A stretch of DNA of 64,000 nucleotides from Candidatus Obscuribacterales bacterium (GCA_965228855.1 CBDDIJ010000002.1:320001-384000); one strand, 5' to 3'; positions 989-55,381 are shown, numbered from the stretch's first letter. Translations and numbers: made by a program. The notes: generated by a model from the letters alone, not told the origin.

Positions 989-1125
989 CTACTATATTTT
1001 TTCGTATAACGCATTTCGGCAAACGCCTTCAGGTCTTTCATTTTCAAGGATGCGGACTTCGTATTCTGATCGTTTGTCTACGACAGAATGCCGGAATTTC
1101 AAATATTCGGCAACGCACCGTAGAC
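989..1125. repeat. 50-bp palindrome (1076-1125) with CTACTATA box (989)
   Basis: GTCTAC-GACAGAA-TGCCGGA-ATTTCAAATA-TTCGGCA-ACGCACC-GTAGAC; box 87 bp from palindrome edge. Confidence 0.85.
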
Positions 1126-1500
1126 AGCGGCAGTAGACTAAACTTATCAGTGGTTCGTACAACCAAGTCCACCGGCAGCCTGCGCACAAGGTCCCATCAG
1201 CAGCTAGCGCTCAAGTTTTCTCACACCTGCGGCTAAACATGCCCGCTCATGTCACTCAGGAGCCTCAAAGGTCGGCCAGGCCCTCCAATCTCGGACCAGA
1301 AATCTCTGATGTAATCGTCGACTTCGACGTCGAGACCCTGCAGCGAAAGCCCGTTGAGTGAGACCGTGCAATCGCCGTTTTCACATCAATCGGCCACGAG
1401 CGTGCCGCCGGAATCATAAACACCTATCCTCAATTCAAACACATCGCCAACTGGTACGACGACGCTCAAGCCAATGAAAGGCGAATTTTTCGGCATTCTT

Positions 1501-1649
1501 GTCTACGCCTGGATGACGCTTTAAGCGAATTTCGTCTACGCACCGTAGCCAAAATGCAATTTTGAGAAACCACTTCAATGGCAGACCAGCCCAAAAGTCC
1601 CTCCCTGTTTACAATTGCCCTATAAAGCTGATACGCCCGCATATAGTAG
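1501..1649. repeat. 50-bp palindrome (1501-1550) with TATAGTAG box (1642-1649)
   Basis: GTCTAC-GCCTGGA-TGACGCT-TTAAGCGAAT-TTCGTCT-ACGCACC-GTAGCC; box 99 bp away. Confidence 0.8.
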
Positions 1650-1847
1650 TAAAGCTTTGGAGTAGTAAAGCTTTGGAGAGCCAAAATTCGTAAGGTGGCT
1701 CCACCGGTTGGTTGCAACTTCATCCCAGCAGGGTTTTACCTGCGTTGGCTGGTCTATGGAGAACCAGGCAGTCTTGGCTAGACGATGGGATTCCGCTTGC
1801 AGTGCCGGTGGCGCCGCCTTACGAATCTTGACCCTTTAGTGAAGAAA

Positions 1848-1909
1848 ACAGTTTCCCGGTGGACCGAGGTCCACTTGCCCGAAGGCAAGCCGCGAGGCCG
1901 GGAAACTGT
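1848..1909 (-). terminator. branched hairpin downstream of NADAR gene
   Basis: ACAGTTTCCCGG (1848-1859) pairs with CCGGGAAACTGT (1898-1909). Confidence 0.55.
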
Positions 1910-1926
1910 CGAATCAAATCGGCCGG

Positions 1927-2394
1927 TTAAGCCCGATTCTTGAACTCGTCGCGAAGCTCCGTGAGAATGCGGACGAACACCGAAGCCGGAAAGACAGTGT
2001 CTTCAGGTTCGGGGTGACCGCAATCGTGGACGATGGGACGCGGGTCGGTGGCTACGAAAGCCGTCGCAATCGCGGGATGTGCCTCCAACTTGGCACGAAT
2101 CGCGCGCTTGATCAGTTCGACGTGCTTGTCGGAGCCCAGAGCAAACGTCTCGCCACCATAGGTGGTTTCGGTGAGCTTGCTCTTCTTGCCCATGTTCTTG
2201 ACCACGATGCCGTAGAGCTTGCGAACCTTCTCGCGCTTCTCATCCTCGAGGAAAAGAAGGGAGACGTAGAAGCCCTCGACCGAAGCATACTCGACACCGT
2301 CGATGGTGAACGGGGTCGGTGCGAAGTTCGACATCAAGCGCCCGATTTCTTCATCGGAGCGCGAGTAGACGTTCAGTGCGTTGTTGCTGTTCAT
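1927..2394 (-). CDS. NADAR-family (YbiA-like) protein
   Basis: MSNFAPTPFTIDGVEYASVEGFY resembles the NADAR SNFxxxPFxxDGxxYxSVE motif; RAIRAKL...HP; AGGAG upstream of ATG 2394. Confidence 0.7.
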   Translation of the reverse strand: MNSNNALNVYSRSDEEIGRLMSNFAPTPFTIDGVEYASVEGFYVSLLFLEDEKREKVRKLYGIVVKNMGKKSKLTETTYGGETFALGSDKHVELIKRAIRAKLEAHPAIATAFVATDPRPIVHDCGHPEPEDTVFPASVFVRILTELRDEFKNRA

Positions 2395-2787
2395 GACACG
2401 CTCCTTTTGGTTTGGTGTGGGCACTTTCGTCAGAACCTGCTTTCACGACTCTTCGAGCGAAGAGAAGCGAATGCTGAGATAGCCAGATAGATATGAGCTA
2501 CTTGGTTTTTCTGGTCCTTGAGAGAAGTGTGGAATTGAATATAAGAATCACCATAGAATCATGAGCTTTCAACAATCAATAGTTTTAATAAACCGCCTGG
2601 AGCCGCTCAAGCTCAGAAAAATCGGTATCCGAACCAAGCAAAGGGCTATATTTTGGGGCGTTTTCAAAGATCATTCAAGCTCGTGAAACCAAAAGCGCTC
2701 ATGGGAATTCCACGCACATTAAACCACTCTTAGATATTCGCGCAGCTCTGCGACCAGGTCGGTCCGGTCGATTTCCAGATCCGCCCC

Positions 2788-2910
2788 GTCAATCCTAGAG
2801 CGACGGTTTCAACCAATTCCGTCGCGCTCTCATTGACAGACCGATTCTAAATCCAGCCCTGTCAATTCTAAAGCGACGATTTCAGCAAATTCCGTCGCCC
2901 TCTCATTGAC
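2788..2910. repeat. two tandem 50-bp palindromes, GTCAAT subtype (2788-2837, 2861-2910)
   Basis: GTCAAT-N7-CGACG(G/A)T-N10-TCCGTCG-N7-ATTGAC, twice. Confidence 0.85.
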
Positions 2911-4228: not shown

Positions 4229-7200
4229 CTAGCGCGACGCCACTGTTCTTGCGCGATAATCGTTGACCAGCTGCTCAAATTGCTGGCGATTGAATAGCGT
4301 TTGGAACCCGGGATGCTTTTCGGTACCGAGCGATTTCCATTGAGCCATCGCCTCATCTATCGATTTATTGCCTGCGACCACATCGTGAAACGCGTTGACC
4401 AGGCCGGTTCTGTCCTCTCCATGGTAGCAATGGAATAAAACATTTTTGCCTTCGCGCTGCGCTTGACCAACGACACGCTCGAATTCAGCGAGGTTATCCA
4501 GAAGCTGATTGTAATTAGGCGTGCCGCGCATAGGCCACTCCGTGGGAATGCCGAGGTTGCGCACGTCAACCTGTTTTCCAGCAAGGTCGGCAGCCCATTT
4601 AGCCTGGTCGGCAACGCTCTGCAGTTCATCTCGTCCGCCCGGTCCGCCCCGCAAATCAATCACGACATCGGCGTTGGTTTGCTCGATCATTCGAGCGAAT
4701 TCTTCGGGAGATTTCGTCGCACCAGCTCTGTATAACCCTTCCGAAACCTCTGTGACGGGCTGAGGTCTGCGTCCTGGAACTCTAGGCGTCCTGATTCCTT
4801 GTTCTTTCAAAACGCGATTCGTGAAGTCGTTGACCAGCGAGCGATTGTTCGTCGGATGGCTTCTGAACGGATGTAGCATTGCGATATCGACGTTCCGTTC
4901 AGGATCCTTGGTGACATAACCGGGATTACCAACGAGCGCATTGAGTTCGTCAGTCGTGAATCCCATCTGCTGAAGCGCTGGACTATCGAAGATTTGCGGC
5001 AAAACGCCATCGTGTGAATAAATGAATTTCGCATCGAAGTCAAAAACCGATTGCAACTTTTGCTCAGGCAGATAGCCGCCGAGGTGCGCAACTATGACGG
5101 GAGCACCAGATTCCTTGATCGCCTCGGATAAGGGACGCGGAGTCGTTCCGACGCCCTCCGCCAGCGGCTTCATCAAAAGTTTCTCGGGCTGTCTGCCGGT
5201 GAACGAATAGTCATCCAGGTAGACAACTACTTTGTCCTTAAATTTTGATGGATCCGCCTGGAATTCGGCAGCGGACACGAAGTTCTGCGAGCGCAAATCA
5301 GCGGTTCGTCCGAACAAGTGGTGGATAAGGTTGCTTGATCCATTTTCCTCCATGCGTGTGAGTACAACAACATCGTCCATGGTCTTGCCAGGCGGCAGTG
5401 CGTCCTGAATTCGCCGGTTCAGATTTTGCATTTCCTGCAACATCGTTTCGTACGTATTCACTTTCATTGTGTCGCGCAGAATGGTCGCGGCAGCTAATTT
5501 CTCGGCGTCGGTTAGCTTCTCGCCAGTCGTACTGCCAGGCTCCGGCGGTTTTCTATAATTGTCGAGGAAGCTGCGAACGTCTTTGTCGCTAACCATCGAG
5601 AAATTGTTCTTGCTTGCATCGTAAATCGGACGGCTGATTGCCTGATCGTAAATGTTTTCAGCTGAACGATTTCGCGTGCGCTGTGTGCGTGCCGGAAGTT
5701 CCGGACGTAGAATTTCCATGTTTGGAAAATCCTTCGCAGCATTATCGAGTGGTGCTCTGAGAACTTGTTGTATTGCTTCTTCGTTAGTAAGGTTTGGATT
5801 CTCTGCTTTAAGTCGTTTCGCCTGCTCAACCATCTCTGCCATTCGGGTTTGCATCGTCTCGGTGCTGCCAGTCAGCTTAGCCACACCTAGCTCCCACGTG
5901 TTCAGTCCGGAATTGAAACCGTTTAAATCAGATGCGTAAACCTTTGGAAGCTGGCGCAGGAAGTCTGATTGCGCGCCACTCAAGGAAGCAAGATCATCAA
6001 GCACGAGCACCGGATTTGATGGCGAGACTCCTTCGCGAATAGTCTGTGCATTGAGAACCTTGATTTCGACTTCCATGCTTGTATTCGTGCGAAGAAGGTA
6101 GGCTAGAGCCGCGCCGGAAGAATTTTCCTCCGATGCAACCACCGTAATTTTGCGAACTCCCTGCTCTTGCAACTTGCCGATCTGCTGTTGCAGTTTATCC
6201 AGTTGACCATCAAGAGCTTTGCGATGCAGGTTGGGAATGGACTGTTCCAGCAGTTCTAGAGCCAGTCCTCTATCTTGTGGTGGCACTTTGTCGAGCAATT
6301 CCAGGAATTGATCGCGACCAATTGGCGGGCGATTTTGAATTTCAGCAAGCTGTTCACTGACCTCGCGGATGCGCGCCGGATCAACAGGTTGGTCCTTGGC
6401 TCTGACGGGAGCGTCCGTAACCGGACGATTACGATCCGTGACATTGTCACCCTCGACTCGTGGCTCCGTCTCAGTCGGCTTCACCTCTTCCTCGACGCGA
6501 GCGGGCTGACGATGCGGCTCTACTTGACCGTCCGGAGTGGTTGGACGTTCGAGAGGCGTCGCCGGTCGCTCTGCCGGTGGAGTGATACCATCGCGCGATG
6601 GTACGTCTGTCGTTTGTGGTGCAACGTCTGTCGTGCCCGGGGGAACCTCTGTCGTTTGAGGGGGAACGTCTGCCGTCTGCGCCGGTCCGTCTGTCGTGCG
6701 CGCGGGAACTTCTGTCGTGCGACCTGGTACATCCGGAGTGTGTCCGGGCACGTCGGGCGTCACGTGGGCAACCGGCGCATCGACGCCTTGAAGAGCTTGA
6801 TCGGCGATGTTTTGTAGAGGCGAGCGTTCTCGAGAGGCCACCGTTCTCAACGCATTCCAGCCTTTTCCAGCCACCACCATACCCGGTGCCAGGAGGATCG
6901 GACCGAGGCTGCCGCCGAGTGCACCGAATGCGGTGCTAGTTGTCGCCTGCCGCAAGAACGAAGCAACGTCCCGAGCGTCTGCGCCAGCCTGAATTGTTCC
7001 CGACAAACCACTTCCCGCCATACCCGCCAGAGTGTTTTCCGGAGTGCTCATGACTATCTGCTTGAGCAATGTGCGGCTTTGCTCTTCAACAGACTCGGCC
7101 AAACTGTTTTTCAACAACGCGGCAACAGCCTTCTCATCGCCGTCTTTGGCAATCTGTTTTGCAAGCGACAGGATCGCATCGTCCGAGATTTTGCCACCAT

Positions 7201-10200
7201 TCGCCAAGCCTTGCTTCAACAGCGCTTCCGTACCCTCTTTCAGAGTTGTTTCCGCGCCTTCTCTAAGCAGATTCTTACCAGCACCTGCCAAAACTTTCTC
7301 TGCGGCAGCCTTTCCAACGCCGGCTCCAAGGAATGCGGTGAAGCCTTCAGCGAAGCCGGTTCCCGCGTCGAGAAACGCTTTACTACCCCAATCGTAGTCA
7401 CCGCCCATGATGGCAGACTTGGCGCCGACTTTGAACAACGCGGCACCGGCGCCGGTGTAGGCAAGCAGTGACAAACTAACGCCACCAGTGAAGAATGCGC
7501 CACCGACCGACACAGCCGCGATGGTCGTATCGACTACAGCGTTCGCCAGTCCTTCTTTAGAGTCTGCGTGCATGTCGACCAGCTTATAAACGTTTGCAAC
7601 ATGGTCGCGAATCTTAGCCGGGTCCTCAACCATCGTCCTGGCAAGCTGGTTGATCTCATTGTCCAACTGATAACCGGTTCCATCCCAGGCGGCATCAACA
7701 AAGGAGCTGCCTATACCGGAACGGCTTATGGAAGCGTCGTTTTGCGCGTAGAGGAACTCGCCGCGCGCGTCACGAACAGTCGATTGCCGCTGCACCTGGC
7801 GCAAGTCTTTGCCGGAAAGCTCGGAGACCAAATCCGCTGAGAGATCGGTACCATACTTACGCGCATACTCGTCCTGAACTCTCTGCACGCGGCTGCGAAC
7901 GATCTCGTCTATTTCCGCTTCTGACTTACCTTCCTGACGCAGCGCAGTGCGATCCGTTAGTTGAGCAAATGTGTCTTTGATTTCCTGCTCGCTGGTGCCC
8001 ATGCCAATTTGGTACGACCGAAGTTTATCCTCAGGTCGCATCTCGCCCTGCTGCATCGATGCAAGCGCTACCTTGCGCTCGTCCTGACTGAGGAAACCGA
8101 GAACACGATCTTGGAACGCCTGGTCTTGGAGAATACGCTGTCGCTCATCACCGGTGGCGTTCTGAATATCGCGATAAGAGCCTTGCTCGTCGTCGTCAAA
8201 AACTCCTCGGTTGAGATCCATCTGTCTTTCGATCGGAATGCTCCCCGTCTCGATCAACGGTTTAGCATAGCGCTCGTAGTCGTACGATCCCATTGCTCGC
8301 CTTGCAGCATCCTGAAAATCACGCGCGAACTTTCTGCCTTCTTCGGTGTCGGGCGGATGAATAATTCGCTCTCGAAGCGTCGGATCATTTTTGAACGCTT
8401 CCTGGATATCCCTTATCACTTGCGCTTCGTCTGAATCAAAGTGCGACGCATGCAAGTTGAGTTTGTCCATGATGGACATTTGCGGTTTTTCACCACGCTT
8501 AACCTGATCGAGTAAACCGAATGCGACTTTCTGTTCGCTCGAATCCAGCGAATCACGCAATTCCTGATTTAACTTCAGGTAGAAGTCCCGTGCTTCTTTG
8601 TTGGTAGTCGACTCGTTGCTGCCTTCTCGATACAAAGCCTGCTCACGATCGCTCATTCTCTCGACGGCCTTGTACATTTGCGCTTCGTCGTTGTTGTACC
8701 AGCGGCGATTGTCCGCGATCGTCTCGAGGATCGGTCGTCTGTTCTGCTGCGCTTCTTCGAACGTAGGCGCGTCTTTCATCGCGTTGATTCGCGTCATTGC
8801 GCGCTGAAGCTCAGACTCGGATAAATAAGTTTTCAAAACCTGTTCGACACGTTGCACTTGCATCGGATCGTTGCGAAGCTGCTGCCAGTCTTCCTTCGAC
8901 ATATCTTCGATGGAACCGATTACTTCATGCATACTCGAGTCGTAGACTGTTCCACGATGCGCGGACAAGCGTGAAACCAGCCCGCCACCCTTGTTAGCGA
9001 TCATGTCCTCCCACTTCGCCAACTCATTAACTTGCGAGTCACCGGAGTACCATTGCCCCGCTGCTCGTTCCAGCGCACCATGGGTCTTGGTGTAGTAGTC
9101 CATCGCCTGTTTCCGTTCATCCGCATCAACTTGCGGCGCCGGTTGCTCGTTTCGAGCTAACGCTCTACCTGTGGTGTACAACTGCCTCTCGCGATCGCTC
9201 ATATTGGCGAGCGAGTGCTCGATTGCTTCTTCGTTGTCGCCCAGCCATGAACGGTTGTCGTCTACCTGCGTGGACACCGATAACTTTCCGTGCTCCGCAT
9301 AGTCGCGCACGTGCTGCAAGTTCGTATCCGTGACATTGCCGCTAAGTCCAAACGTGAGCGCGTGATACCAGTGACCTTCAAATGCGTTGCGCATCGCATC
9401 CTGACCTGCCGGAGAGGCAAAATAGTCGCGCACTTCTTTGGGTGCGCGGCGCATCGCTTCCTGAAACATTGTCGGATCGCCTGACGTAACAGCGCGGTCG
9501 GCCAGGGTTCTCGTATCTTGCGGGGTGCGTTTGTCGTGACCCTTCAGATAGACATCGGCCGCTGCTTTCGTATCCGCAGACAAATGCGGGTTGTTCATGA
9601 CCGCGTCACGAAGCGACATGCCATAGCGTCTGCGATATTCAGCATCGGTCTGCGCGATTTCCGTCGAGCTCATCGTTTCAAGCGTGTTGCGCACGACCTT
9701 TTCCAGCTCGGAATTAGATCGTCCTGTCCACTCGCCGCGCTCCGTCAACGCTACCCGAATCGTGCCCGCGTTGTCGGCGCCATCAGGACGATGGAGAAGT
9801 GCGTTGGCTTTGTCCAGGTCGGAGCCTTCCATCTCGTCTTTGAACTCGGCTTCCAGAGTATGACCGTACTTCTTCCCGTATTTCTCGTTCCAGATTTCCT
9901 TGATCATCTGGCGCTCTGCAAACGTTTTGTTCTCGAGCGTGGAGTAGATCGTCTGCTCGTCTGTGCCGGCACCTGTGCCACCATTCATCGCATACTCGAT
10001 AGTGTCAGCAGCAGCTTCCATCGAGCGATGATTTACATCTTGCCTGGAACCATCAGGTTTTCGCCACTGCCGGTTCCCCTCAGCGTCTTGCTGGAAGTAG
10101 GTACCGTCTGATTGCACGGATAGACGGCCCTGCCAGTTAGTTTTACCGTTCGTCCAGTTGGTACCATCGGTGGTGGTCCAGGTTTCGTTTCCTTCCGTGA

Positions 10201-12533: not shown

Positions 12534-12850
12534 CTACTATATGCGGGCGTATCAGTATAATCGCGACGACGCAGTAAAGGACGGTTTTTTGGGCAAACGA
12601 CTTGCCGACCACTTATGGCTTTGTCTACGACTCGTTGACGCTTTCCCGGAAATCCGTCGCTCTCTCGTAGACGATGGGGAGAGCTGACTCAAAACAGCTT
12701 TTGTCTATGGTGGAATGACGGATTCAGCGAAATCCGGCATCCCGCGATAGACAAACAACGGAATTTGAAGAGATGCTTCTTTCAAGATACCTGCAATGTC
12801 CCACCCCCACTACGCTCCGGGTGAAAACTTTTCACTCCGGGATATAGTAG
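12534..12850. repeat. composite element: CTACTATA, two 50-bp palindromes (12623-12672, 12703-12752), TATAGTAG
   Basis: Inverted outer boxes 89 and 98 bp from the nearest palindrome. Confidence 0.85.
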
Positions 12851-16805: not shown

Positions 16806-16855
16806 GTCAAAGAGCCAGCGATGGAACTCGCAAAATCCGTCGCTCTGGGTTTGAC
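16806..16855. repeat. 50-bp palindrome, GTCAA subtype
   Basis: GTCAAA-GAGCCAG-CGATGGA-ACTCGCAAAA-TCCGTCG-CTCTGGG-TTTGAC in the divergent intergenic region. Confidence 0.75.
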
Positions 16856-18056: not shown

Positions 18057-18300
18057 CTACTATATCATTTCGTTTCTAGTCAGCAGAAAACGACGACAGG
18101 AGCGGGTTCGAGAGCAACCTGCATTGTTCAGTCCGCCAGCCAACCCCGTTTGGCTACGAGAGAGCGCCGGAATTTTCGAATTCCGTCATAGCCAGATAGC
18201 CAAACTCGCTTTTTCTTGCCCGCCTTGAGGGACCGCTTCCTCCAAAAGCAGCACCAGGGCTTCTTTTTCCGCCTTAGCAATCTACCCTTCCATCTAGTAG
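18057..18300. repeat. composite element: CTACTATA, palindrome (18152-18201), TCTAGTAG
   Basis: Boxes 95 and 99 bp from the palindrome; core and right arm homologous to 28185-28339. Confidence 0.85.
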
Positions 18301-27935: not shown

Positions 27936-28339
27936 CTACTTTAAGCCGACGTATTCACACAAATCCTCCCAAGGCTCTCCGCGCATTTGTTATCGAAGAC
28001 TATCTACTATAAGCCGACGTATTCGCACAAATCCGCCTAAGGCTCTCCACGCAGCTGTTTCGAGAGCAAAGCACATCGCTCAACCCCCGCCTACTATAAG
28101 CCGACGTATCCACACAATCCTCCGAAGGCTCTCCACTCACCAGTTTCGAGAGCATCGCGCATCGTTCATTCCGCCATCCACCTTCGTTTGGCAACGAGAG
28201 AGCGCCGGAATTTTCGAATTCCGTCATAGCCAGATAGCCAAACTCGTTTTTTGATTACTGCTTTTGAAGGGGCGTTTCCTCCAAAAGCATCATTACGTCT
28301 CAGTCTCCCGCCTTAGACGTCTACCAATCCATCTAGTAG
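27936..28339. repeat. composite element with triplicated left arm (27936, 28004, 28091), palindrome 28190-28239, TCTAGTAG end
   Basis: Three copies of CTACT(A/T)TAAGCCGACGTAT...AAGGCTCTCC; boxes 99 and 100 bp from the palindrome. Confidence 0.85.
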
Positions 28340-30254: not shown

Positions 30255-30506
30255 GTCTATCGTACGATGACAGATTTCCGAATATCCGGCATCGTGGGAT
30301 AGACAAGATGGGTAGTGCATCACGGATGTAAGGGCAAAACAGCCGTGGACACTACATTCTAGCGCTTACCGCTTATGCTGTCTTATAGTAGATAAGGAAT
30401 CCGGCATCGGGGGATAGACAAGATGGGTAGTGCATCACGGATGTACGGGCGAAACAGCCGTCGGCACTGGATTCTAGCATTTAAAACATATGCTGTCTTA
30501 TAGTAG
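30255..30506. repeat. palindrome 30255-30304 plus tandem duplication of its right half and arm
   Basis: ~30284-30391 repeated at ~30399-30506; both copies end TATAGTAG 87 bp from ATAGAC. Confidence 0.85.
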
Positions 30507-37053: not shown

Positions 37054-37370
37054 CTACTATATTCCAGCGTATACGTATTTTCGACAGACTCCCACGAGCT
37101 CTGGTTTTCCGAGAACCGTTCCAACTGTTTACTCCCCAAATTGGCAGTTTGTCTACGGCTCGTTGCCGGATTTCGCAAATTCCGGCAATGCCACGTAGAC
37201 ATCGCTCTTAAGCGATATTGATTTCGCAAATTCCGGCAACGAGGCGTAGACAAAGCTCATGAGCGACGCCGATTTCAAGTCGCCTTCTCACGGAAGCTCC
37301 CCCACAGGCAATGGCGGCGAAATCGTCTTCCAGTTTCGCTAGTGCCCCGACAGCCGAAACGCGATAGTAG
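37054..37370. repeat. composite element: CTACTATA, palindrome 37151-37200, extra right half ending 37251, GATAGTAG
   Basis: GTCTAC-GGCTCGT-TGCCGGA-TTTCGCAAAT-TCCGGCA-ATGCCAC-GTAGAC; boxes 97 and 119 bp away. Confidence 0.8.
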
Positions 37371-40617: not shown

Positions 40618-40652
40618 GGCGAATCGCCCCACTTTCCAATTGCCCAGCCTCT

Positions 40653-40798
40653 CTACGATAGCGAACAGTAGAAACGATTCACGCGTTCCCGCGCCAGCCT
40701 GGCTTTCAGGACACTGGTCTCGAATACTTCCTCAAAATTCTGCTCGTTGTCTATGCCACATTGCCGGAATTCGCAAATTTCGTCAATGCTGCATAGAC
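40653..40798. repeat. CTACGATA box plus 50-bp palindrome (40749-40798)
   Basis: GTCTAT-GCCACAT-TGCCGGA-ATTCGCAAAT-TTCGTCA-ATGCTGC-ATAGAC; box variant 96 bp away. Confidence 0.8.
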
Positions 40799-40962: not shown

Positions 40963-41063
40963 TTGAATTGAATTGAATTGAATTGAATTGAATCGAATCG
41001 AATTGGACTGAACTGAATTGAACTGAACTGGACTGGACTGGACTGGACTGGACTGGACTGGAC
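40963..41063. repeat. pentanucleotide microsatellite, about 20 units
   Basis: TTGAA units grading through TCGAA/CTGAA into CTGGA units. Confidence 0.95.
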
Positions 41064-42533: not shown

Positions 42534-42579
42534 GCGGTCAGCTCATTTCGAAATGGAACTCTCAAAGGAGAAATTCAAA

Positions 42580-44133
42580 ATGCGGAAGCATCTGATCTTC
42601 GCATTCGTCGTCTTCGCAGCGTTCGTTCGCTCGCTGCTCGAGAAAACCGACCTGGGATACAAGCTTCTGTTCCTGCCAGGAACAGGCGGGTTCCGCACTG
42701 TGATGGGACTCTGGAAAGCCTGGTACACCTTCGAGAAGGCGCGCAAGGAGTGCCCGGCCTATGAGGACTTCTGTCGGAAAAACAGCTGCGAGGTCACGCT
42801 CGACGGCTGGATTCCGGACTTCTCGAAAGTCGTGCCGATCGACAAGCCGAACTTCATCAAGGTCTACGACATGGCTTCGCGCTGCATCGGCGGCAAGATC
42901 CCGACCCGTGGAGCAGTCATCGACCAATCCTCCGGCTCCACCGGCAAGCCCACCAACTGGGTGCGGGGAGACGCGGAACGTCGAGCGGTCGCGCGCACCA
43001 TGCAGCTCGCACTGCGCGAGTTCGTCGGTCGCGACAAGAAGATTCTCTTCGTTAACGCTTTCGCGCTTGGTCCCTGGGCGACCGGGATGTGCGTCAGCTA
43101 CTCGATCTCCGACGAATGCCTGCTCATCTCGACCGGTCCCGACATCGACAAGATCATCGGCACGCTCGAGGACTTCGGCTCGGAAGGCTGGCTCTACGTT
43201 ATCTCGGGATACCCACCCTTCCTCAAGATGCTCGCGGACTCGAAGCGGCTCGACTGGAGCAAGTACCAGGCGATCGGCTTCTACGGCGGAGAGGGCATGT
43301 CGGAAGGCATGCGCAGCTACCTGATGGGCACGTTCAAAGAGGTCTACGGCGACTACGGCGCCAGCGACCTCGAGATCAACATCGGCGCGGAGAACGCTTT
43401 CACGGTCGCCGTGCGGCGTCTCATGGTTTCCAACGAGAAGCTCCGCCGGCGCATCAATGCGCCGCTGTCGCAACTCAAAGGACTGGAGCGGGTTCAGGAC
43501 CACCTGCCGCACATCTTCCAGTACAACCAGCTCGATTATGTCGTCGAGACGAACGCCGAAGGCGAGCTTGTCATCACGCTCACGCGCTCGACGAATGTCT
43601 CGCCGAGAATCAAGTACAACATCCACGACAACGGTCATGTGATGTCGTACGGCGAGCTGTGCCGCATGCTTGAAGCCGAGGGCATCAGCGTGAGCTCGCT
43701 TCCGCCGGCGATTGCCAATCTGCCGATCATGCTGCACTACGGTCGCTCGGACCTCGCAGCCTCGTACTACGGCTGCAAGATTCCGCCGACCGACATCGAG
43801 AAGATCTGCTTTGAGATTCCGGAGCTGGCAAAGATCTTCAACTCGTTCCGTCTGATCACGAGCGAGGACGCCGAGCACAACAAGCACCTGGAACTCGCCA
43901 TCGAACTCGGCGACGGGCAGCCCATCCCGGCCACCGCCGATGCCGAAGCGATCGAGAAGCGCGTGTTCGAGCTGCTCATGCACCACAACCAGGACTACCG
44001 CGAGTCGTCGCGCATCGCGGCGCAGAAAGGCATCTACGCCAAGGTGGTCTTCTACGGTTTCCGCCAGGGACCGTTCGTGGGCTCCGACATCCGCCTCAAG
44101 AACAAGTACACCGAAGAAGGCGGCAAGAAGTAA
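42580..44133 (+). CDS. PaaK/CapK-like adenylate-forming ligase
   Basis: SSGSTGKPT, SGYPPFL, GGEGMS, DYGASDL, IKYNIHD; AAGGAG before ATG 42580. Confidence 0.8.
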   Translation: MRKHLIFAFVVFAAFVRSLLEKTDLGYKLLFLPGTGGFRTVMGLWKAWYTFEKARKECPAYEDFCRKNSCEVTLDGWIPDFSKVVPIDKPNFIKVYDMASRCIGGKIPTRGAVIDQSSGSTGKPTNWVRGDAERRAVARTMQLALREFVGRDKKILFVNAFALGPWATGMCVSYSISDECLLISTGPDIDKIIGTLEDFGSEGWLYVISGYPPFLKMLADSKRLDWSKYQAIGFYGGEGMSEGMRSYLMGTFKEVYGDYGASDLEINIGAENAFTVAVRRLMVSNEKLRRRINAPLSQLKGLERVQDHLPHIFQYNQLDYVVETNAEGELVITLTRSTNVSPRIKYNIHDNGHVMSYGELCRMLEAEGISVSSLPPAIANLPIMLHYGRSDLAASYYGCKIPPTDIEKICFEIPELAKIFNSFRLITSEDAEHNKHLELAIELGDGQPIPATADAEAIEKRVFELLMHHNQDYRESSRIAAQKGIYAKVVFYGFRQGPFVGSDIRLKNKYTEEGGKK

Positions 44134-44230
44134 GCACCGCCTGCGGTGCCGGCAATGTTTTCCGGATGGCGAGGTCAACGCGATTTGACCTCGCCGACCA
44201 TTCTCTGCTCCAGGGTCTGAACCTGGCTCC

Positions 44231-44280
44231 GTCAATCCAGCAGCGACGGTTTTAGCGAATTCCGTCGCTGTCTCATTGAT
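44231..44280. repeat. 50-bp palindrome, GTCAAT subtype
   Basis: GTCAAT-CCAGCAG-CGACGGT-TTTAGCGAAT-TCCGTCG-CTGTCTC-ATTGAT, ending 44 bp before the next ATG. Confidence 0.85.
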
Positions 44281-44323
44281 GGACGGTCTCGTTCAACACA
44301 CCGATTGTTCGAAAAGGAACGAT

Positions 44324-45448
44324 ATGAAAAACTTCGATTCCATGGCCGCGCACGTAAGCGCTCCGCTCATGCGAGCGCGCGCGCGGCTCTATCAAGTCTC
44401 CGGCGGCAGCCCGCTTTCCGGAGATGTTCGTGCGGCGCGCCTGACCACGGCACAGCGCATCGAGTACTTCAAATCTTCGGAGTTCCGAGATTGGGTCGCC
44501 TACGAGAAGTCCTTTGGACGCCAGGTTTTCTGGCTCAAGGACGTCGACAAGACGCAAGCATCGGGCGACATTTTCACATTCTTCTTCAAGTGGCGCGCCG
44601 ACAATGGCAAGTTCACGAAGCCGCAACTCAACGCGGTTTCGCAATACCTGCTGAAACGCCAGAGCCTGGCAAGCGCGGCCGGCGTGCGCATCACCCATGG
44701 TGCCCTCGCCCTGGTCAACGGCTTCGGCGCGGCGATCAAACCGCCCGCCTTCGCCGACCTCAGCCCCTACGAGGTGCTGCGCCTCTGGGATAGCAAGGAG
44801 CGCGGCGGCAGCGGCATCGGCTTGCTGGACTTCTGGGCGCAGGTCTACTGGCCGTCGCAACGCGGTCTGACTCGCGAAGAGAAGCTTCGGCAAGTCCAGG
44901 CGTTCGCACCGACATACGCGGACCGCGTCTATCCGGGTGTCAAGGAAGAGAATCTGGCGCTGACTGACGCGGGCGTCGAGGTTGTGATCGTCACGAACGG
45001 CGACCAGGAGCTAGCCACAGCGGCGGCGCCGTACATGGGCATCAAGCCCGAGAATGTCGTGGGCTCACACCTCATCTATGAAGGCGAAGAGTCCACCGGC
45101 GAAAATCACGCCTACGAAATCTTCGCAGAGGATTGGGCAGAGCGTCCGCAGCCAGGCAAGCCGCTGAGCTTCCACTACTGGATCTACATCAACCGGTCGC
45201 GCTGGGGCTGGGACCACCTGGACGAACATCTGATCCTCATCGCCGGGCGCGATGGCGACTCGGCTTCGTCCGACGGCGGCATGATGATTTTCCTGCCCAC
45301 GCCTGCGATCGGCAACTTCATGGTCGACACGCCCGGCGAGCCAGCCAGGCTGCAAAAGTTCCATTCCGTGACCTCGAAGTACGGATGGACGCGCGGTCAG
45401 TTCTTCACGCTCGTGCAGGAGCAGTCGAAACTCGGCGCCAAGCCTTAA
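44324..45448 (+). CDS. HAD-superfamily (SerB-like) hydrolase
   Basis: DVDKT, IVTNG, GKP, GDSASSD motifs I-IV. Confidence 0.65.
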   Translation: MKNFDSMAAHVSAPLMRARARLYQVSGGSPLSGDVRAARLTTAQRIEYFKSSEFRDWVAYEKSFGRQVFWLKDVDKTQASGDIFTFFFKWRADNGKFTKPQLNAVSQYLLKRQSLASAAGVRITHGALALVNGFGAAIKPPAFADLSPYEVLRLWDSKERGGSGIGLLDFWAQVYWPSQRGLTREEKLRQVQAFAPTYADRVYPGVKEENLALTDAGVEVVIVTNGDQELATAAAPYMGIKPENVVGSHLIYEGEESTGENHAYEIFAEDWAERPQPGKPLSFHYWIYINRSRWGWDHLDEHLILIAGRDGDSASSDGGMMIFLPTPAIGNFMVDTPGEPARLQKFHSVTSKYGWTRGQFFTLVQEQSKLGAKP

Positions 45449-45561
45449 CGTCTGCTGCGTTTGGATTTAAACCGTTTGAGCCCACGGCTCAGCGCGTTTA
45501 ATTGTCGGGGAGGTGATACTGGCAAATCGCCACGTCACCTCCCTCGGCTTCCACAGCCCGC

Positions 45562-45798
45562 CTACTATATTCTTCCGTATCGTTCAAACGAGCACATCGA
45601 CTGCCCAGTCACGGTTTTCGCGGATCATTCAAGTTCATCCTCCGGAAGAAGGCTGTGTTTGTCTACGACAGAATGCCGGATTTCGCCAAAAGCGTCATTC
45701 CAGGATAGACAAAATGACTTACGGCTTTTACATAACAACCGCTAAACCAGCGCCATTGGGCATCCCGAGACCATCACAGAAACGATATCCTATAGTAG
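45562..45798. repeat. composite element between convergent genes: CTACTATA, palindrome 45661-45710, TATAGTAG
   Basis: Boxes 99 and 88 bp from the palindrome. Confidence 0.85.
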
Positions 45799-45856
45799 CT
45801 AATTCGACAGGAGAAACCGGCTCGGAGAGCCGGTTTCGGAGAGAGCGAGAGAGTGG

Positions 45857-46204
45857 TCAGTCGAACTCGCTCGCGGGACGCGGCGGGACCGGACCCATCG
45901 TGACATAGAGCACGATGTTCGCGACCAGGGCGAAAACGATCGCGCCGACGCAGGCGAGAGCCGCGGTGCCGATCGAGGGAGCGGCGAAGCAGCAGAACAG
46001 CGCCCAGATGCCGCCGAAGATGCCGGCACCGATCAGGGCGTCACCGTCCTGGTAGCGACCGGTGCGGAACGCATCCTGAATCTCCCAGGCGGTGCCGCCG
46101 AAGAGACCGACGAAGTAGGTCGTCATCGCGATGAGAAAGAGCCCGAGCACCGACATGCCGGCGTAATAGAGCAGATTGAGGATGCCTTCGATGATCCAGT
46201 ACAT
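45857..46204 (-). CDS. small membrane protein
   Basis: Three hydrophobic segments; AGGAAGG upstream. Confidence 0.6.
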   Translation of the reverse strand: MYWIIEGILNLLYYAGMSVLGLFLIAMTTYFVGLFGGTAWEIQDAFRTGRYQDGDALIGAGIFGGIWALFCCFAAPSIGTAALACVGAIVFALVANIVLYVTMGPVPPRPASEFD

Positions 46205-46349
46205 GACAAAATTCCTTCCTGTCATAGCTTGTGAAATTCGGCAGGCTGAAGGAGTTTAAAACCCCATCGCCCACCAGCGGACCGACACCACTTGTAGTAT
46301 CAACACAAGTGGTGCCGGTTTGTGGCTCATTCACGAACCACCAGCTTTG

Positions 46350-46841
46350 CTACCCCTCACTTTCGGGAGTGGCAGTCTTTCCGGGACAGCCGACGCATGT
46401 GCAGGTTGCACAAACACGCGGGCAAGCCGAATCGGTTTCGTCAGGCGAACCGTTCGACCCAGTCGCAACGGGAGAAGCAGCGGTCTCCTCAACGGCTTTC
46501 GCCGAGCGAGCGCGGTCTCTGGCCGTTGCGCGCTGCCAGTCTCGAGCGCGGACTAGCGCCGAGTCGGCAGAACCACGCGTGCGCGCGGTCGTGACGGGAG
46601 CGTCGGCAGTCGACACCTCCGAAGATTCGCCTGCACCATCAGCGGTGGCACTGATATTGCCGGCGGCGATCTCCTCATTCAAGATCTTGTAGAACAGCTC
46701 TTTGGCCTGGCGACCGCAGATACCACACTGGGTGGCAAGTCCGGTCGTTTTCGCCATTTGAGCGAACGTCTTCACCTTGCCGGACCGGATGAGAGCGCGC
46801 ATGGCTCCGTCGGTCACGGCGTGACAGCTGCAGATATACAT
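46350..46841 (-). CDS. Bfd-like [2Fe-2S] protein with Ala-rich linker and Cys-rich tail
   Basis: MYICSCHAVTD...TQCGIC; tail CPRVCATCTCVGC; AGGAGG RBS. Confidence 0.7.
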   Translation of the reverse strand: MYICSCHAVTDGAMRALIRSGKVKTFAQMAKTTGLATQCGICGRQAKELFYKILNEEIAAGNISATADGAGESSEVSTADAPVTTARTRGSADSALVRARDWQRATARDRARSAKAVEETAASPVATGSNGSPDETDSACPRVCATCTCVGCPGKTATPESEG

Positions 46842-47165
46842 CGTGACCTCCTTTCGGTCATGAGCACCGAATTAAATCCGGCATGGTTGTTGGTGTTTGA
46901 AAGAAGCGCGAGTGGCGTCTTCGCAGGTCGACGCGCACAGCCGTTCAAGCTGATGCACGCCGCATGGTGGCGCCGACTTGCTTCTTCTATTTTTCTTGGA
47001 AGTCGGGAGCCGTCGCGAGGGAAACCGAGGCGGACAGCGCCTGCGGTTTCCACCTCACAGGAAGCGAGGGTGCCGGCACAGCTGGGTTTCAGGGACGAAA
47101 CCCAGAGCGTCGGCAGCGACGATATTGAACCGGCTACGTTCCCGGCGTACCGGCAGGTGCCTGGT

Positions 47166-48017: not shown

Positions 48018-48595
48018 ATTGTGCCTTTCGAAAGTTTGCAGAAACAGCCCTTTGGGGTGAAGCGCGCGCCAAGTGGGCTTGTAACCCGGCGCGTGCACCT
48101 TATGGTTTCAGCCAGCCCAAGCAATCGATTCGCCGCCCAGACCCATCTCCGTGTCCCACCACCGCATAATGTGCGAAGAGGCAGGGGAGGATTGCGTCTG
48201 TTTTTCGGTGGGCGGGTTCTCGAATGCAGTGAGTGAGGCAAGTACAAATCTTTGGTATCAAAAAGATGACAGCCGAGACAATCACCGCGAGCATTAGTAT
48301 TTGGAAATAAGAACTTTCGCGCATCATGAACCGAATGTGAAAAGAGCCGAATTCTTGATCAGTTCTACTGCGACCACGCGCGTGATAAAGCTCCGCGCAC
48401 CTAGCGCTAGCTCGCTTGTAAAGAGGATCGTTACACAGTAACCATGCGTAACCTCCCCTGTCGAAAAACCATCCGAGCTGGCACAACATCGTGATATTTT
48501 GCCATTTCACACAAAGCTCTTCACCTGCATACTTTCTCAGGAGCTAAACCGTTTACAGCCTCGCACCGCATACGGTGCACAGATGTCTCGCCAAA

Positions 48596-48886
48596 ACCGT
48601 CGCTCTCTCATTGACAGGGCTTGAGACTCATTTATGACAAGCTCGGATGCCTTGCCTCGCAGGTCTTTATCAATTAAACTGTTCGCTATGAAAGGCTCCG
48701 CTTTCGCGTAGAAGCCTTTCATCCTTTTTCAAATGAAACGGACTGTCTTTGTCTATCCTACGATGCCGGAATTCGGAAATTTCGTCGCTCTCCGATAGCC
48801 AAAAAAACTCTCCGCCTCGAAGCGATCCGGAGAACCCCGACCGCATCAAGGTTTCCGGAATCCACTTTTCCTATGTTTTATAGTAG
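48596..48886. repeat. half palindrome (48596-48615, ATTGAC type), full palindrome (48751-48800), TATAGTAG (48879-48886)
   Basis: GTCTAT-CCTACGA-TGCCGGA-ATTCGGAAAT-TTCGTCG-CTCTCCG-ATAGCC; box 86 bp away. Confidence 0.8.
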
Positions 48887-49303: not shown

Positions 49304-49828
49304 AGGTTTCTTTCGTTTGTTGTTGTTGTTCTGGAAAGAGCTTCTCGCCGAACCCCTCCGAAAACCGGCTCACGACCTGCCACTACGGTGCAGCAGAGAA
49401 AACGTGAGAAGAAAGCGTGCTTGTGTTTCTAGTTAGAGAATTCCGGAAAATCAGATAGGGTCGAGAAGTACACCGAGACTATCGATCCAACGACAGCAAC
49501 ACAAGGTTTGATTATTACATATAAAGGCAAAGGTTCATCGAAAGAAACGCTGATAACCAGGCACTCTTCGAAGGTTTCAATAATGCGAGCCGCTCGCAAC
49601 TGTTTCACTCCGGACGAAAAACATTCGCACATTCGGATCGGGTAGCTCGCCGCTTTGATATTGCAGAAAACTTTTTGATGCTTGGAAACACTGATAGGTT
49701 CGGCATTCCCGCCCCTATCGTAATTTTCCCATGAAAACGGTACAGAATGTTCACACAATATCCCTAGGGTATTCGTGTCGGGACTCCGCAATATCAATCC
49801 CGATTCGAGTCAAACAAAAGGTTGGGTT

Positions 49829-50713
49829 ATGGTCATGGTTAAAACTGCACTTCCGCAAGAGCTTTCAAATCTAATCGGCGAGTACGAGCGCAGCCTCAAT
49901 AGTAAGGAATTCTCCGCTCACACGAAGCGCGCCTATATCTCAAGAAACAAAAAATTTCTTTCCTACCTACATGAGTCCGAGGGAATCTCCTCGATGACGA
50001 ACTTCGACAAAGGCTGGTCAGAAGTCATCAATAATTACAGAGAATTTCTCAAGAGCGAGCATCAAGCATCTCTGAATTCAATCAATAACAGCTTGACCGC
50101 AATCGAAGACATCTTTTCTTTCATCGGCGTCGACATGGGTCGGGTCGAGCGCGAAGCATGGCCGAAATCGACTCCGCGCTGTCTGACGCAGCATGAACAG
50201 GAGCTGTTCATAAACGCTGTTTACCGTACAAAATCGTCTAAAGATAAAGCGATTGTTCTACTGATTTTGTTTACCGGTATTAAAATCGGAGAATGCGCAT
50301 CGTTAGATATAGACGACATCTTCATCAGCGCACACACAGGTCGAATCACTGTAAAAGACGGTCGCATCATACCACTGAATACGGTGGCACGCCGGGCCCT
50401 TATTCAATGGCTTATCGACCGCCACAAAAAATTTGGCGAAACCGCTGAGCGCGCATTATTCCTCAATCCTCAAGGAAAACGTATTTCAACGGTCGGCATC
50501 GATCTTATCGTCCGCAAGATCGGACACAAGGCTCACCTCAATATCTCAGCACAAGTTCTTCGTGACACCTGCTTGAGCAACCTGGTGAGAAACGGAAACG
50601 ACCTCTTGCTCGTCGCACAGATCGGCGGACATAGAACGATTGAAACCACAAGACGCTATACCAGCTCCCGGAGCTTTGATGCTCACGAGGCGATGGAAGC
50701 GCTCGGTCACTAA
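49829..50713 (+). CDS. XerC/D-like tyrosine recombinase with non-canonical active site
   Basis: SAM-like N-domain; FTGIKIGE, SAQVLRDT, GGHRTIETTRRY. Confidence 0.8.
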   Translation: MVMVKTALPQELSNLIGEYERSLNSKEFSAHTKRAYISRNKKFLSYLHESEGISSMTNFDKGWSEVINNYREFLKSEHQASLNSINNSLTAIEDIFSFIGVDMGRVEREAWPKSTPRCLTQHEQELFINAVYRTKSSKDKAIVLLILFTGIKIGECASLDIDDIFISAHTGRITVKDGRIIPLNTVARRALIQWLIDRHKKFGETAERALFLNPQGKRISTVGIDLIVRKIGHKAHLNISAQVLRDTCLSNLVRNGNDLLLVAQIGGHRTIETTRRYTSSRSFDAHEAMEALGH

Positions 50714-53122: not shown

Positions 53123-53259
53123 CGGCAACAGCCGTTTCCCGAGTGTCCCTGAACAAGCATCTTTTACCCGCGTGAACGCTGTCGACTCGATTGCCATCGC
53201 TGCTTGCAGTGAGCAATCGACTCGGCTGTCGCCGCGCACAACTTTCGAAGGACGGAATC

Positions 53260-53859
53260 ATGCGCCATCTAGGCATCATGGGCGGAACCTTCAACCCGCC
53301 GCACAACCTCCACTTGCTGGTCGCGCAGCTCGCTGCCGAACAGTTCGACATGGAGAAAGTTTTGTTCGTCCCTTCGGGACAACCGCCTCACAAGAAGGCG
53401 GATCTGCTTCCCAAGGAAGTCAGGTTCGAACTGACCGCCGCTGCCGTTCAAGGCAACGAGATGTTCGAAGCATCGCGCATCGAAGTCGATCGCCCGGGAG
53501 TCACCTGGTCGATTGACACTCTGCGCGCATTGAGCCGGATTCACGGTCCGGATGTCCGTTTGAATTTCATAATCGGCGATGACAATCTTCCGGTCATCCG
53601 GGATTACGAAAAGCGTGATGAACTCTTGAGCTTGGCTCGACTGGTCGTCTGCCCCCGCAAGCGCGTCGGCAACAAGGCGAACATTCGCAGCTGGCGCAAG
53701 GTCATTCCGAACGCCGATATGGTCTTCGTCGATTGCCCGCAGTTTCCTTTCTCCAGCACGCTGGTTCGCGACTGGCTGGCGCAGGGGCGTGACGTTCGAT
53801 ACCTGGTCCCCGAGCCGGTTCTCGACATCATCAAGACGCGCGGCTATTTCACGAAGTAG
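53260..53859 (+). CDS. nadD: nicotinate-nucleotide adenylyltransferase
   Basis: GIMGGTFNPPHNLH, PPHK, WSIDTL, FIIGDD, SSTLVR, YLVP. Confidence 0.85.
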   Translation: MRHLGIMGGTFNPPHNLHLLVAQLAAEQFDMEKVLFVPSGQPPHKKADLLPKEVRFELTAAAVQGNEMFEASRIEVDRPGVTWSIDTLRALSRIHGPDVRLNFIIGDDNLPVIRDYEKRDELLSLARLVVCPRKRVGNKANIRSWRKVIPNADMVFVDCPQFPFSSTLVRDWLAQGRDVRYLVPEPVLDIIKTRGYFTK

Positions 53860-53943
53860 CGACTTATATCTTTGGCGGCGGCGGCGTCTTTGACAGGACG
53901 CCCGCCTCCGAGTACAAACGGTGTAGAAACACCTGGGAAATAT

Positions 53944-54900
53944 ATGCGACGAAAAATTCTCAGCACACTTTTACGCATCGCCACGGCGCCGTATACCCTC
54001 ATGCCGGGGCGGTCCTGGAAAGGTGCTTTGCCGCAGCTCTCTGCGCAACAGACGTCGCTGTCTCAACTGATACGGCGACATGTTCACGAGCTGTCGGTAG
54101 TCATCGGCGAGCGCCACATCGGACGCCCCGACGCACTGACGAAAACGGTTGATTATATCCTCGCCGATTTGTTCGACTCTGGATACGAGCCCAAGCTGCA
54201 CGACTTCCCGCTTGAGGGCACAACGCAGCAGAACGTCGAAGCAGTCTTGCCAGGCAAAAGCAAACGCGTGCTCGTCATAGGCGCTCACTACGACTCGGTT
54301 CCGGGCTCTGCAGGCGCCGACGACAACGCCTCTGGCGTGGCAGCTGTTCTTGCACTAGCCCGTCTCTTGCGAGACTACGAGCCGAACGACACGATTCGTT
54401 TCGTTCTCTTCGCAAATGAAGAACACGTTGGTTTGCCGGCAGAAACCATGGGCAGCTACCACTACGCCAGGATGTGCAGTGAAAGCGGAGACCAGGTTCG
54501 CATGCTGGTTATGGAGATGCTCGGCTTTTTCAAAGACGAAGAAGACACGCAGCATTACCCGCCACCGCTCAATCTTGTCTATCCGACCAAGGGCAACTTT
54601 GTCGGTTTCGTCGGCAACTGGAAGTCGCGCTCGCTCGTTCACGACTGCATCCGCGCGTTCCGCAAAACCGCAAAATTTCCGTCGGACGGCGTCGCGGCAC
54701 CGGACAAGCTGAAAGACATCGGTCGCTCCGATCACTGGGGCTTCTGGCAGTTTGGCTATCCGGCGATCATGATCACGGACACCGCGAATTTCAGAAACCC
54801 CCACTATCACACCGAACACGACACCCCCGAAACACTCAACTATGAATCAATGAGTCGCGTCGTGAGCGGTTTGGCAACAATGGTGCGCACCATCGCCTGA
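53944..54900 (+). CDS. M28-family peptidase
   Basis: GAHYDS, GADDNASG, FANEE, RSDHWGF, YHTEHD. Confidence 0.85.
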   Translation: MRRKILSTLLRIATAPYTLMPGRSWKGALPQLSAQQTSLSQLIRRHVHELSVVIGERHIGRPDALTKTVDYILADLFDSGYEPKLHDFPLEGTTQQNVEAVLPGKSKRVLVIGAHYDSVPGSAGADDNASGVAAVLALARLLRDYEPNDTIRFVLFANEEHVGLPAETMGSYHYARMCSESGDQVRMLVMEMLGFFKDEEDTQHYPPPLNLVYPTKGNFVGFVGNWKSRSLVHDCIRAFRKTAKFPSDGVAAPDKLKDIGRSDHWGFWQFGYPAIMITDTANFRNPHYHTEHDTPETLNYESMSRVVSGLATMVRTIA

Positions 54901-54903
54901 CCC

Positions 54904-54934
54904 GAAACCTGGAAGGTCCCACCTTCCAGGTTTC
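54904..54934 (+). terminator. intrinsic terminator
   Basis: GAAACCTGGAAGGT/ACCTTCCAGGTTTC perfect 14-bp stem. Confidence 0.7.
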
Positions 54935-54948
54935 ACCGCCAAGCTCGC

Positions 54949-55381
54949 CTACTATATTCCGGCGTATTCACATTTCCCGGAGAATGATTGACCAGTGGAG
55001 GTTTGCGGCGTTCATCCTTCCAAACCAGTGTGCATTCTTGCCAGTTTGTCTACGCCTCATTGCCGGATTTCGAGAAAAGCGGCAATGGCTCGTAGCCACC
55101 GCTCACTACTATATTCCGGCGTATACGCCTTTTTCGGACAACCCTCTCCCCTTGGAGCTTTCGGGCATCACCCATCCGGATCGGAGTCAATTTTTGCAGG
55201 CTTGTCTACGCCTCATTGCCGGATTTCGCGAAAAGCGGCAATGGCTCGTAGACAGAGCCCAGCCAAAAGCTGGTCATAAAACCTGAAAGCCCGCTCGGTG
55301 CTTAAACCACCTTTGATATGATCTAGTAGTAGTCCTGAAAGCCAGACCGGTGCTTAAACCGCCTTTAAAACGATCTAGTAG
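54949..55381. repeat. duplicated composite element: boxes 54949 and 55106, palindromes 55048-55097 and 55204-55253, duplicated right end (55282-55329, 55334-55381)
   Basis: 157-bp tandem unit starting at CTACTATATTCCGGCGTAT; 52-bp tandem unit ending GATCTAGTAG. Confidence 0.9.

Follow-up and report, generated by a model that had tools for sequence, protein, structure and literature searches.

In the MatP-matS system, many palindromic sites define one chromosomal domain, the terminus. Other proteins act at the origin: RacA, RocS and RicO combine a head of the MerR or MarR type with a coiled coil and anchor chromosomal origins (bioRxiv 10.64898/2026.03.06.710092; PMC4914108). RacA binds 25 regions between -412 and +200 kb (PMC4914108) and RicO binds nine intergenic sites in ~700 kb around oriC (bioRxiv 10.64898/2026.03.06.710092). 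Here we describe a family of sites found in a stretch of 64,000 nucleotides (the window) from a Candidatus Obscuribacterales bacterium (GCA_965228855.1 CBDDIJ010000002.1:320001-384000). They consist of a four-box palindrome of 50 bp, the core, and a second palindrome, the T-box, joined to it by an arm. Our preferred reading, which is tentative (probability roughly 0.45), is that cores and T-boxes would be docking arrays for a DNA-bridging protein, which would anchor or compact the origin domain in the manner of ram and ricS. Such a system would bear on the organisation and segregation of chromosomes of 5-9 Mb in non-photosynthetic relatives of cyanobacteria, and the analysis yields a site, a mapped domain, a rule for the spacing and one specific protein as a candidate, all of which can be tested in vitro without culturing the host.

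Like the ram sites of Bacillus subtilis and the ricS sites of Staphylococcus aureus, these sites are palindromes distributed over several hundred kb and clustered around oriC; the clustering resembles that of ram and the intergenic location that of ricS. The candidate binding protein has a MerR head whose profile matches RacA in the PDB. The 14-mer consensus of ram, TGACGCCGGCGTCA, is rich in GC, whereas the T-box, a 19-mer, is rich in AT; ram sites reportedly lie in coding sequences (bioRxiv 10.64898/2026.03.06.710092), whereas the cores are intergenic. A phased second box and coupling to terminators are seen here and were not found in the accessible descriptions of the RacA and RicO anchors. 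The MatP-matS system differs in marking the terminus rather than the origin, in having about ten times fewer sites and in lacking a phased partner box. Bridging by MatP is mentioned in PMC4914108. No description of the present repeats was found in the literature searched, which covered few subscription journals.

Anatomy of the cores and T-boxes

The initial annotation listed 17 full copies in the window, all intergenic and with invariant internal spacing; the copies and their spacing are confirmed. Each of the 17 starts yields a 50-bp match, and a scan with a symmetrised position weight matrix returned exactly these copies in the window and 211 cores (at least 20 bits) in the genome (G000, 8.2 Mb), while the block-shuffled genome gave no match above 10 bits. 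In 206 cases the left and right core arms are paired with an offset of 0; five pairs have other offsets. Outside confident open reading frames (ORFs), as called by an in-house gene finder, lie 209 of the 211 cores; the copy at 44231 overlaps the start of the next ORF. The half copies are real as well, with arm matches near 30397, 37229 and 48593. Each core arm is itself a 17-bp palindrome (GKC-WAY-S-NNN-S-nnn-GMC), and the core is formed by two such boxes with centres 33 bp apart and a 16-bp AT-rich linker between them, flanked by T and A in 96% of cases. The claim of an element of exactly 50 bp had to be given up: the core is the centre of a larger unit with arms and T-boxes, an anatomy that is read directly from the sequence.

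The two N7 spacers do vary, as first reported, but they are not free, with C or G at positions 7 and 11. The remark that they usually cannot pair needs qualifying as well: on average 2.8 of 7 positions are paired in the 17 window copies, and genome-wide pairing is somewhat above chance. Compared with shuffled arms, cross-centre pairing is in excess at several spacer positions (z 3-7.6), and this excess is what speaks for an RNA or single-stranded DNA hairpin, either attC-like or a structured RNA. The same comparison puts pairing at positions 19-20 below expectation, the hairpin energy of the cores is only ~1 kcal lower than that of arm-shuffled controls (-9.05 versus -8.13 kcal), identical spacers occur in only 4 of 161 cores, and Rfam gave no match at the gathering score. 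Moreover, the cores show no bulged bases and no fixed orientation relative to genes, they lie beyond a terminator-like hairpin, and neither an overlap duplicated at both ends nor oriented one-gene cassettes, by which att and attC sites would be recognised, were found. A hairpin of this kind, which the initial annotation had already disfavoured, is largely refuted and most improbable; the excess pairing is probably better explained by family structure and conversion than by a selected stem.

The T-box motif is present at 211 of 322 cluster flanks (at least 9 bits, read outward), as against 1.9% in the reversed control. It is an imperfect palindrome of 19 bp, reading CTACTA-N7-..GTAT inward, and the box-centre distances form four classes, which follow each other in 11-bp steps: 75.0, 86.3, 97.7 and 108.5 bp (11, 94, 87 and 17 arms, respectively). 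These classes hold 209 of the 211 arms, two falling outside, and the phase concentration of the distances (0.82) was attained by none of 2000 nulls. With a turn of 10.8 bp, the class means correspond to whole turns, 7-10 in number, although this turn count is an interpretation, since the best zero-phase period of the raw distances is 12.25. CTA is the outer core half-site in 322 of 422 arms, and the CTA-N7-TAG spacing equals that of the T-box. The invariant core spacing, together with the helical-step distances to a second box, favours the symmetric double-stranded site for a multimeric protein that was proposed at the outset; the boxes would be contacted as duplex DNA, all from one face of the helix.

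Convergent gene gaps are enriched in cores (87 of 203, background 107 of 639) and divergent gaps are depleted (18 of 203, background 143 of 639), a pattern unlike that of an ordinary operator, for which the initial annotation had found the copies very dense. Gene 3' ends are faced by 154 T-box arms, 127 of them with a stem of at least 8 bp; in 71 of these 127 cases the stem begins 14-17 bases beyond the T-box, and the hairpin has no conserved sequence. The other 57 of the 211 arms point to the starts of genes, and most of these have no hairpin. T-boxes may lie just past terminators because that DNA escapes the sweep of RNA polymerase. The position behind stems, the enrichment in convergent gaps and an AA/TT periodicity of 10.5 bp, weakly present in arms of the 99 class, would also suit a transcription or supercoiling device, in which a T-box protein would be a roadblock sealing strongly transcribed operons, and core and arm a looped or wrapped topological barrier or a gyrase-loading site between convergent units. 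Such a device is compatible with origin anchoring, but taken by itself we consider it unlikely, since it does not explain the confinement to the origin and since 57 arms face gene starts. A roadblock compensating for weak U-tracts is not supported, as the U-tracts of T-box hairpins are not weaker than those of other hairpins (3.8 versus 2.9-3.4 U in G000; 5.0 versus 3.7 in G093, a genome of another genus).

Activated outward promoters, with TATAGT as a -10 box and the core as the upstream enhancer of antisense transcription, are suggested by the conservation of TATAGT in G000 and by the helical-step distances, and two 17-bp boxes ~33 bp apart recall NtrC enhancers. We regard them as very improbable: no -35 signal was seen, the box is a symmetric palindrome in other genera, and several arms facing gene starts precede a separate -10-like box. 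Neither a convincing activator nor the -24/-12 promoter of a sigma-54 enhancer was found (rpoN itself was not searched), the best activator matches in G000 (E 2e-13) being split or of the Clp type.

The origin-centred domain

The clustering around the origin was observed directly in three genomes. In G000, 175 of the 211 cores lie within C2:77-1,121 kb (the origin block), around the single dnaA gene (793 kb) and the GC-skew switch. The density of one copy per 4 kb given in the initial annotation is correct locally; it corresponds to ~160 cores per Mb in the origin block, as against ~5 per Mb elsewhere. G007 is ~94% identical to G000 and collinear with it over the 680 kb compared of a 1,248-kb contig; of its cores there, 120 fall in the first 540 kb, where dnaA is located, and one in the next 140 kb. 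In the single contig of G093, 122 T-boxes lie in 700 kb around dnaA, a stretch that may stop short of the domain edges, and one in 100 kb of control DNA; at 13 bits, the count is 118 versus 7.2 in shuffled DNA. The T-box of G093 has the symmetric form YTACTA-N7-TAGTAR, and 67 of the 122 lie in convergent gaps. Small samples from G012 and G108 contained four T-boxes in 48 kb near dnaA and none in 24 kb far off. In G002, which has no core, a T-box follows the same hairpins at four of six comparable loci, and one locus measures 74 bp there, compared with 262 bp for the two-armed unit in G000.

Among 61 related genomes searched for the core pattern, 2 gave a match. A strict pattern had no match in a genome-contig collection. 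A scan of 51 of the 64 parts of this collection gave 61 core loci, 59 of which come from one Obscuribacterales-labelled assembly that is not counted as independent of G007; two lie on an Acidobacteria-labelled contig, probably a binning error, whose identity to G000 in the matching parts is 76-94%. Metagenomes yielded 91 core loci, of which the 80 listed come from two assemblies; their aligned parts average 91% identity to G000, three being without a long match. Viral contigs contained none. In these searches, the 50-bp core did not turn up beyond a narrow clade, with identities of about 91-95%, and the T-box, to judge from its occurrence without cores, is both older and wider. The clade-specific double 17-bp box would have been added beside this older, family-wide T-box.

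Among the genes of the G093 block, 375 have a match in G000, and for 253 of these the best match lies in the origin block, so that the origin domain is ancient and native; 326 have no match. The presence of dnaA in the block, its synteny in the sister species and the genes it has in common with the other genus led to the rejection of an integrated foreign element or prophage of 1.1 Mb; viral contigs, too, gave no match. The idea of a DnaA-trio or an extra origin was likewise dropped, no such motif being present in the intergenic DNA at dnaA. Two parts of the assembly, C2:1-60 kb (GC 0.66) and contig C4 (0.29-0.66), have GC content and codon usage unlike the host and are probably chimeric or contaminating sequence. 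Outside the block, an array of 21 tRNA genes (G000 C3:724518-727973) adjoins a core at 729323.

Silent sites show a sharp GC polarity at T-boxes, which is conserved across genera. Genes transcribed toward a T-box arm have a fourfold-site GC of 0.77 near the site and 0.57 beyond 10 kb; outside the block the value drops from 0.69 to ~0.55 within 1-3 kb, and arm-less sides there are flat. At co-directional loci of G093, the upstream gene is GC-richer than the downstream gene in 25 of 28 cases, compared with 53 of 116 controls. This links the site to transcription units, as the transcription device would have it; the ribosomal-protein operon, which lies outside the block with moderate silent GC (0.39-0.70), speaks against that device. 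Silent-site GC is itself conserved between genera (r 0.75 over 228 gene pairs). Two interleaved silent-GC gene classes (~0.8 versus 0.55 in G000) occupy G000 C2:60-1140 kb (L266-L300). In the GC-rich class GC-to-AT substitution is halved, and the 75 GC-rich shared genes scanned include many for peptidases, fatty-acid breakdown and stress-type functions, 26 being without a Pfam family. The core was rejected as the cause of the gradient, since the orthologous genes of species that lack it are just as rich in GC (TruD 0.71-0.82). Adenine-specific mutagenesis like that of diversity-generating retroelements is not supported, since in the polarised changes the GC-to-AT rate is halved and the rate as a whole is reduced.

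The ParB_N domain was detected in 4 of 61 family genomes, and in G000 only on contig C4, which has aberrant GC; a chromosomal ParB, by which a ParB-parS system would be recognised, was not found in G000. The origin-domain arrays may serve in place of ParB-parS. A bolder version of this idea, which we consider doubtful, is that ParB-parS was replaced in Obscuribacterales by a transcription-coupled centromere. Hundreds of T-boxes, set just behind terminators in a single class of co-regulated, GC-rich genes, would delimit a domain of 0.7-1.1 Mb at the origin. Separate species would evolve 50-bp double boxes of their own, which would spread by themselves, fit in at distances of whole helical turns and strengthen the domain, much like the turnover of eukaryotic centromeric satellites.

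Candidate binding proteins

The candidate binder is a single-copy MerR winged-helix protein resembling RacA, RocS and RicO, encoded at C2:82811-84028, at the edge of the block, and flanked by cores and T-boxes. It combines a MerR head with a probable coiled coil (assigned by eye on the alignment), a linker of low complexity and a C-terminal domain that is small and conserved. The protein was found in 55 of 81 family genomes (30 of the 36 of high quality) and in none of 50 outside the order, and its helix-turn-helix is nearly invariant in 16 aligned sequences. In the PDB, its profile matches CarH, RacA and TnrA with E-values of 3.5e-5 to 9e-4. Five T-boxes lie in 48.6 kb around its orthologues, as against 0.3 in shuffled DNA. 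The C-terminal domain had no match above 0.77 in the Atlas, and no amphipathic tail is evident. On this circumstantial evidence, the protein is a candidate for binding the sites.

Several observations weigh against docking arrays that anchor or compact the origin. The known anchors use 9-25 sites, compared with 120-210 here, and terminator coupling is absent from those portions of the RacA and RicO descriptions that could be compared. In G000, 36 cores lie outside the origin block, some of them near the inferred terminus, and an origin anchor gives no account of the GC-rich silent sites toward the T-box. As for the sites themselves, CTA is the inner core half-site in only 58 of 422 arms, 20 of 23 cores of the GTCAAT subfamily, which occurs in 73-bp arrays, are without a T-box, and the phasing of core-to-core tandem spacings is not significant (p 0.16). 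The exact T-box pattern does not rise above the reversed control in most of the 81 family genomes, so the T-box may vary or be sparse in many genera. With regard to the candidate protein, its E-values are those of any MerR head, and it was not found in G022, G072 and G086 (90-91% complete), though T-box matches are listed there. Within the genus, the DNA-binding heads of this protein have 97-100% identity, and therefore the candidate alone cannot explain a clade-specific core. Finally, a second MerR-type protein is encoded directly after an XerD-like gene (G000 C3:2411234-2412370).

This second MerR-type protein has a charged low-complexity body, and similar MerR matches occur in the four other genomes searched. 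The block also encodes two paralogous Xer-like proteins, ~51% identical (window 49775-50713, plus strand, and G000 C2:923114-924026); four further species of the genus have the former with 89-92% conservation. In both, the catalytic Arg and the HxxRH motif are altered and the Tyr is kept, and they are possibly catalytically dead proteins of DNA architecture. The window copy was rejected as the binder because G093 has no close homologue.

An att site combines a crossover site with phased accessory DNA. The units have a similar geometry, two Xer-like genes lie in the block, and some strain-specific gains and losses abut the sites. These features would fit site-specific recombination modules, with the T-box (6-7-6) as the crossover site of a tyrosine recombinase, the core as an accessory or arm-type site, and the intervening genes shuffled like pdif or integron cassettes. 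We find this quite improbable in view of the altered catalytic motifs, the lack of a close homologue in G093, the N7 of left and right T-boxes, which is not duplicated (49 units), and the absence of an inversion at any site over the collinear 680 kb of G000 and G007; gene order is largely kept in G002 as well. The 17 matches to PF00589 carry no assignment to IntI.

Copying of the units and their arrangement in the window

Between G000 and G007, cores differ by 3.4% (22 orthologous single cores), arms by 10.1% and silent sites by 8-15%, and arm length is identical in 26 of 30 cases and off by one in four. Cores and spacing are thus constrained, whereas arm sequence is not; the median arm identity between copies is 50%. 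Copying of core and arm between loci was observed directly. Of 29,509 distant arm pairs, ten are at least 70% alike, the likeness ending at TAGTAG in the pairs shown, and C2:1120500 and C5:1318274 have the core and both arms in common. An unrelated arm takes the place of the one at 37040-37138 in contigs from three other runs; in one of them it is shown to have the same length. Cores may have spread via ectopic conversion and tandem slippage and may have been retained because the boxes are added in register.

Such copying is also expected of a selfish, non-autonomous element resembling MITEs (transposable elements of miniature size with inverted repeats) or repetitive extragenic palindromic sequences (REPs). 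Here, a unit of ~240 bp (T-box, arm, core, arm, T-box) would parasitise the T-box, and its constraints would reflect the needs of the mobilising enzyme and not those of the host. Arms swapped wholesale in other strains, frequent tandem arrays and half copies, the restriction of the core to one clade and the other 50-51-bp double-box families of sister species all agree with this. It is nevertheless rather unlikely. Target duplications are absent at the core (0 of 161) and at chance level at the ends of whole units (69 units), 86 orthologous loci retain a core, and the ten empty orthologous sites resemble deletions, replacements or insertion sequence (IS) insertions, with no clean pre-insertion site among them. 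The T-box occurs without the core in other genera. The Y1 transposase of REP-associated tyrosine transposases (RAYTs; PF01797) was found neither in G000 (95% complete) nor in G007, and in three of eight genus genomes, all core-less; IS630-type DDE_3 was found in none of the eight, other DDE families not being searched.

With REPs, bacterial interspersed mosaic elements and REPINs (REP doublets) of the GTAG/RAYT kind, the cores share high copy number, extragenic location, enrichment in convergent gaps, tandem arrays with flanks and the role of IS110 target; a GTAG 4-mer is present in the core ends and in the T-box, as in GTAG-family REPs. Those REPs are described as 6-13-bp stems directly tagged by GTAG (PMC3733652). 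Compared with that description, the hairpin here lies 14-17 bases off and has no conserved sequence; no conserved stem of 6-13 bp with a GTAG or CGTC tag immediately next to it was found, and the cores, unlike REP/RAYT systems, are confined to the origin domain and lack a Y1 transposase. The initial annotation was thus right to disfavour a REP, except that the copying of core and arm between loci is a REP- or MITE-like trait. TA-duplicating MITEs (Correia, RUP, ERIC) are units of 100-250 bp with short inverted ends that are copied between loci. The present units, too, are copied between distant loci with defined ends, but their interiors are mostly non-homologous, no duplication marks the ends and no IS630 transposase was found. 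What emerges is a repeat family with REP/MITE-like behaviour that is yet in helical register with a conserved host site.

All seven IS110 copies of G000 sit inside cores. IS110 elements are known to insert in REPs (PMC1525189), a parallel that favours the selfish element. The copies belong to two families (four and three copies, 52% identical) inserted at two fixed core positions (e.g. G000 C2:987643-988926) and provide natural target sets for the study of bridge RNAs. A second double-box family in G000, TGCAA-N6-TTGCA twice with centres ~33 bp apart, has ~31 copies and forms arrays with a period of 102-103 (C2:572608-572960 and ~9 others); at one locus it occupies the place of a two-armed core unit in another strain. 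A third, young family of the 17-16-17 TGTGAG type, with TG...CA ends, has five copies and occurs only in G005 among eight genomes (L326-L330). One copy lies beside the orthologue of the gene flanking copy 30255, and in this one case the T-box ends 78 bp away.

Table 1. Core and T-box units in the 64-kb window (window coordinates)
Interval	Strand	Components	Remarks
989..1125	.	T-box 989-1007, arm (87 class), core 1076-1125	
1501..1649	.	Core 1501-1550, arm (99 class), T-box 1631-1649	
2788..2910	.	Cores 2788-2837 and 2861-2910, arm-less	GTCAAT subfamily; period 73 bp
12534..12850	.	Two-armed: T-box 12534-12552, cores 12623-12672 and 12703-12752, T-box 12832-12850	Convergent gene gap
16806..16855	.	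Arm-less core	Weakest copy (29 bits); divergent gene gap
18057..18300	.	Two-armed: T-box 18057-18075, core 18152-18201, T-box 18282-18300	T-box 18057-18075 also at orthologous place in core-less G002
28091..28339	.	Two-armed: T-box 28091-28109, core 28190-28239, T-box 28321-28339	Related to 18152 and C2:833855 in core and right arm
30255..30506	.	Core 30255-30304, arm, T-box 30373-30391, tandem half copy from ~30397	Half copy has own arm, ending TAGTAG at 30506; then hairpin of gene 30582-32477
37054..37370	.	T-box 37054-37072, arm, core 37151-37200, half copy ~37229-37252, TAGTAG at 37365	
40749..40798	.	Core	No T-box scored in this strain; left flank swapped in other strains
44231..44280	.	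Arm-less core	GTCAAT subfamily
45562..45798	.	Two-armed: T-box 45562-45580, core 45661-45710, T-box 45780-45798	Convergent gap
48593..48886	.	Half copy ~48593-48616, core 48751-48800, arm, T-box 48868-48886	
54949..55329	.	T-box 54949-54967, core 55048-55097, duplicated T-box 55106-55124 and arm, core 55204-55253, T-box 55311-55329	Closing T-box of 76 class

RNA and Hi-C reads over window positions 27500-47000 gave only scattered short pieces and 20 partial reads and were thus uninformative. Among the other genes of the window, a ClpB/ClpC-like gene (24978-27466, minus strand) is present as two ORFs (347 and 445 aa), apparently corresponding to one long ORF in G002, G005 and G006, and represents either a true split or a long-read frameshift. 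A large gene at 4229-12349 (minus strand) encodes an RHS-repeat protein of 2,706 residues with annexin-like and tyrosine-phosphatase-like Pfam matches.

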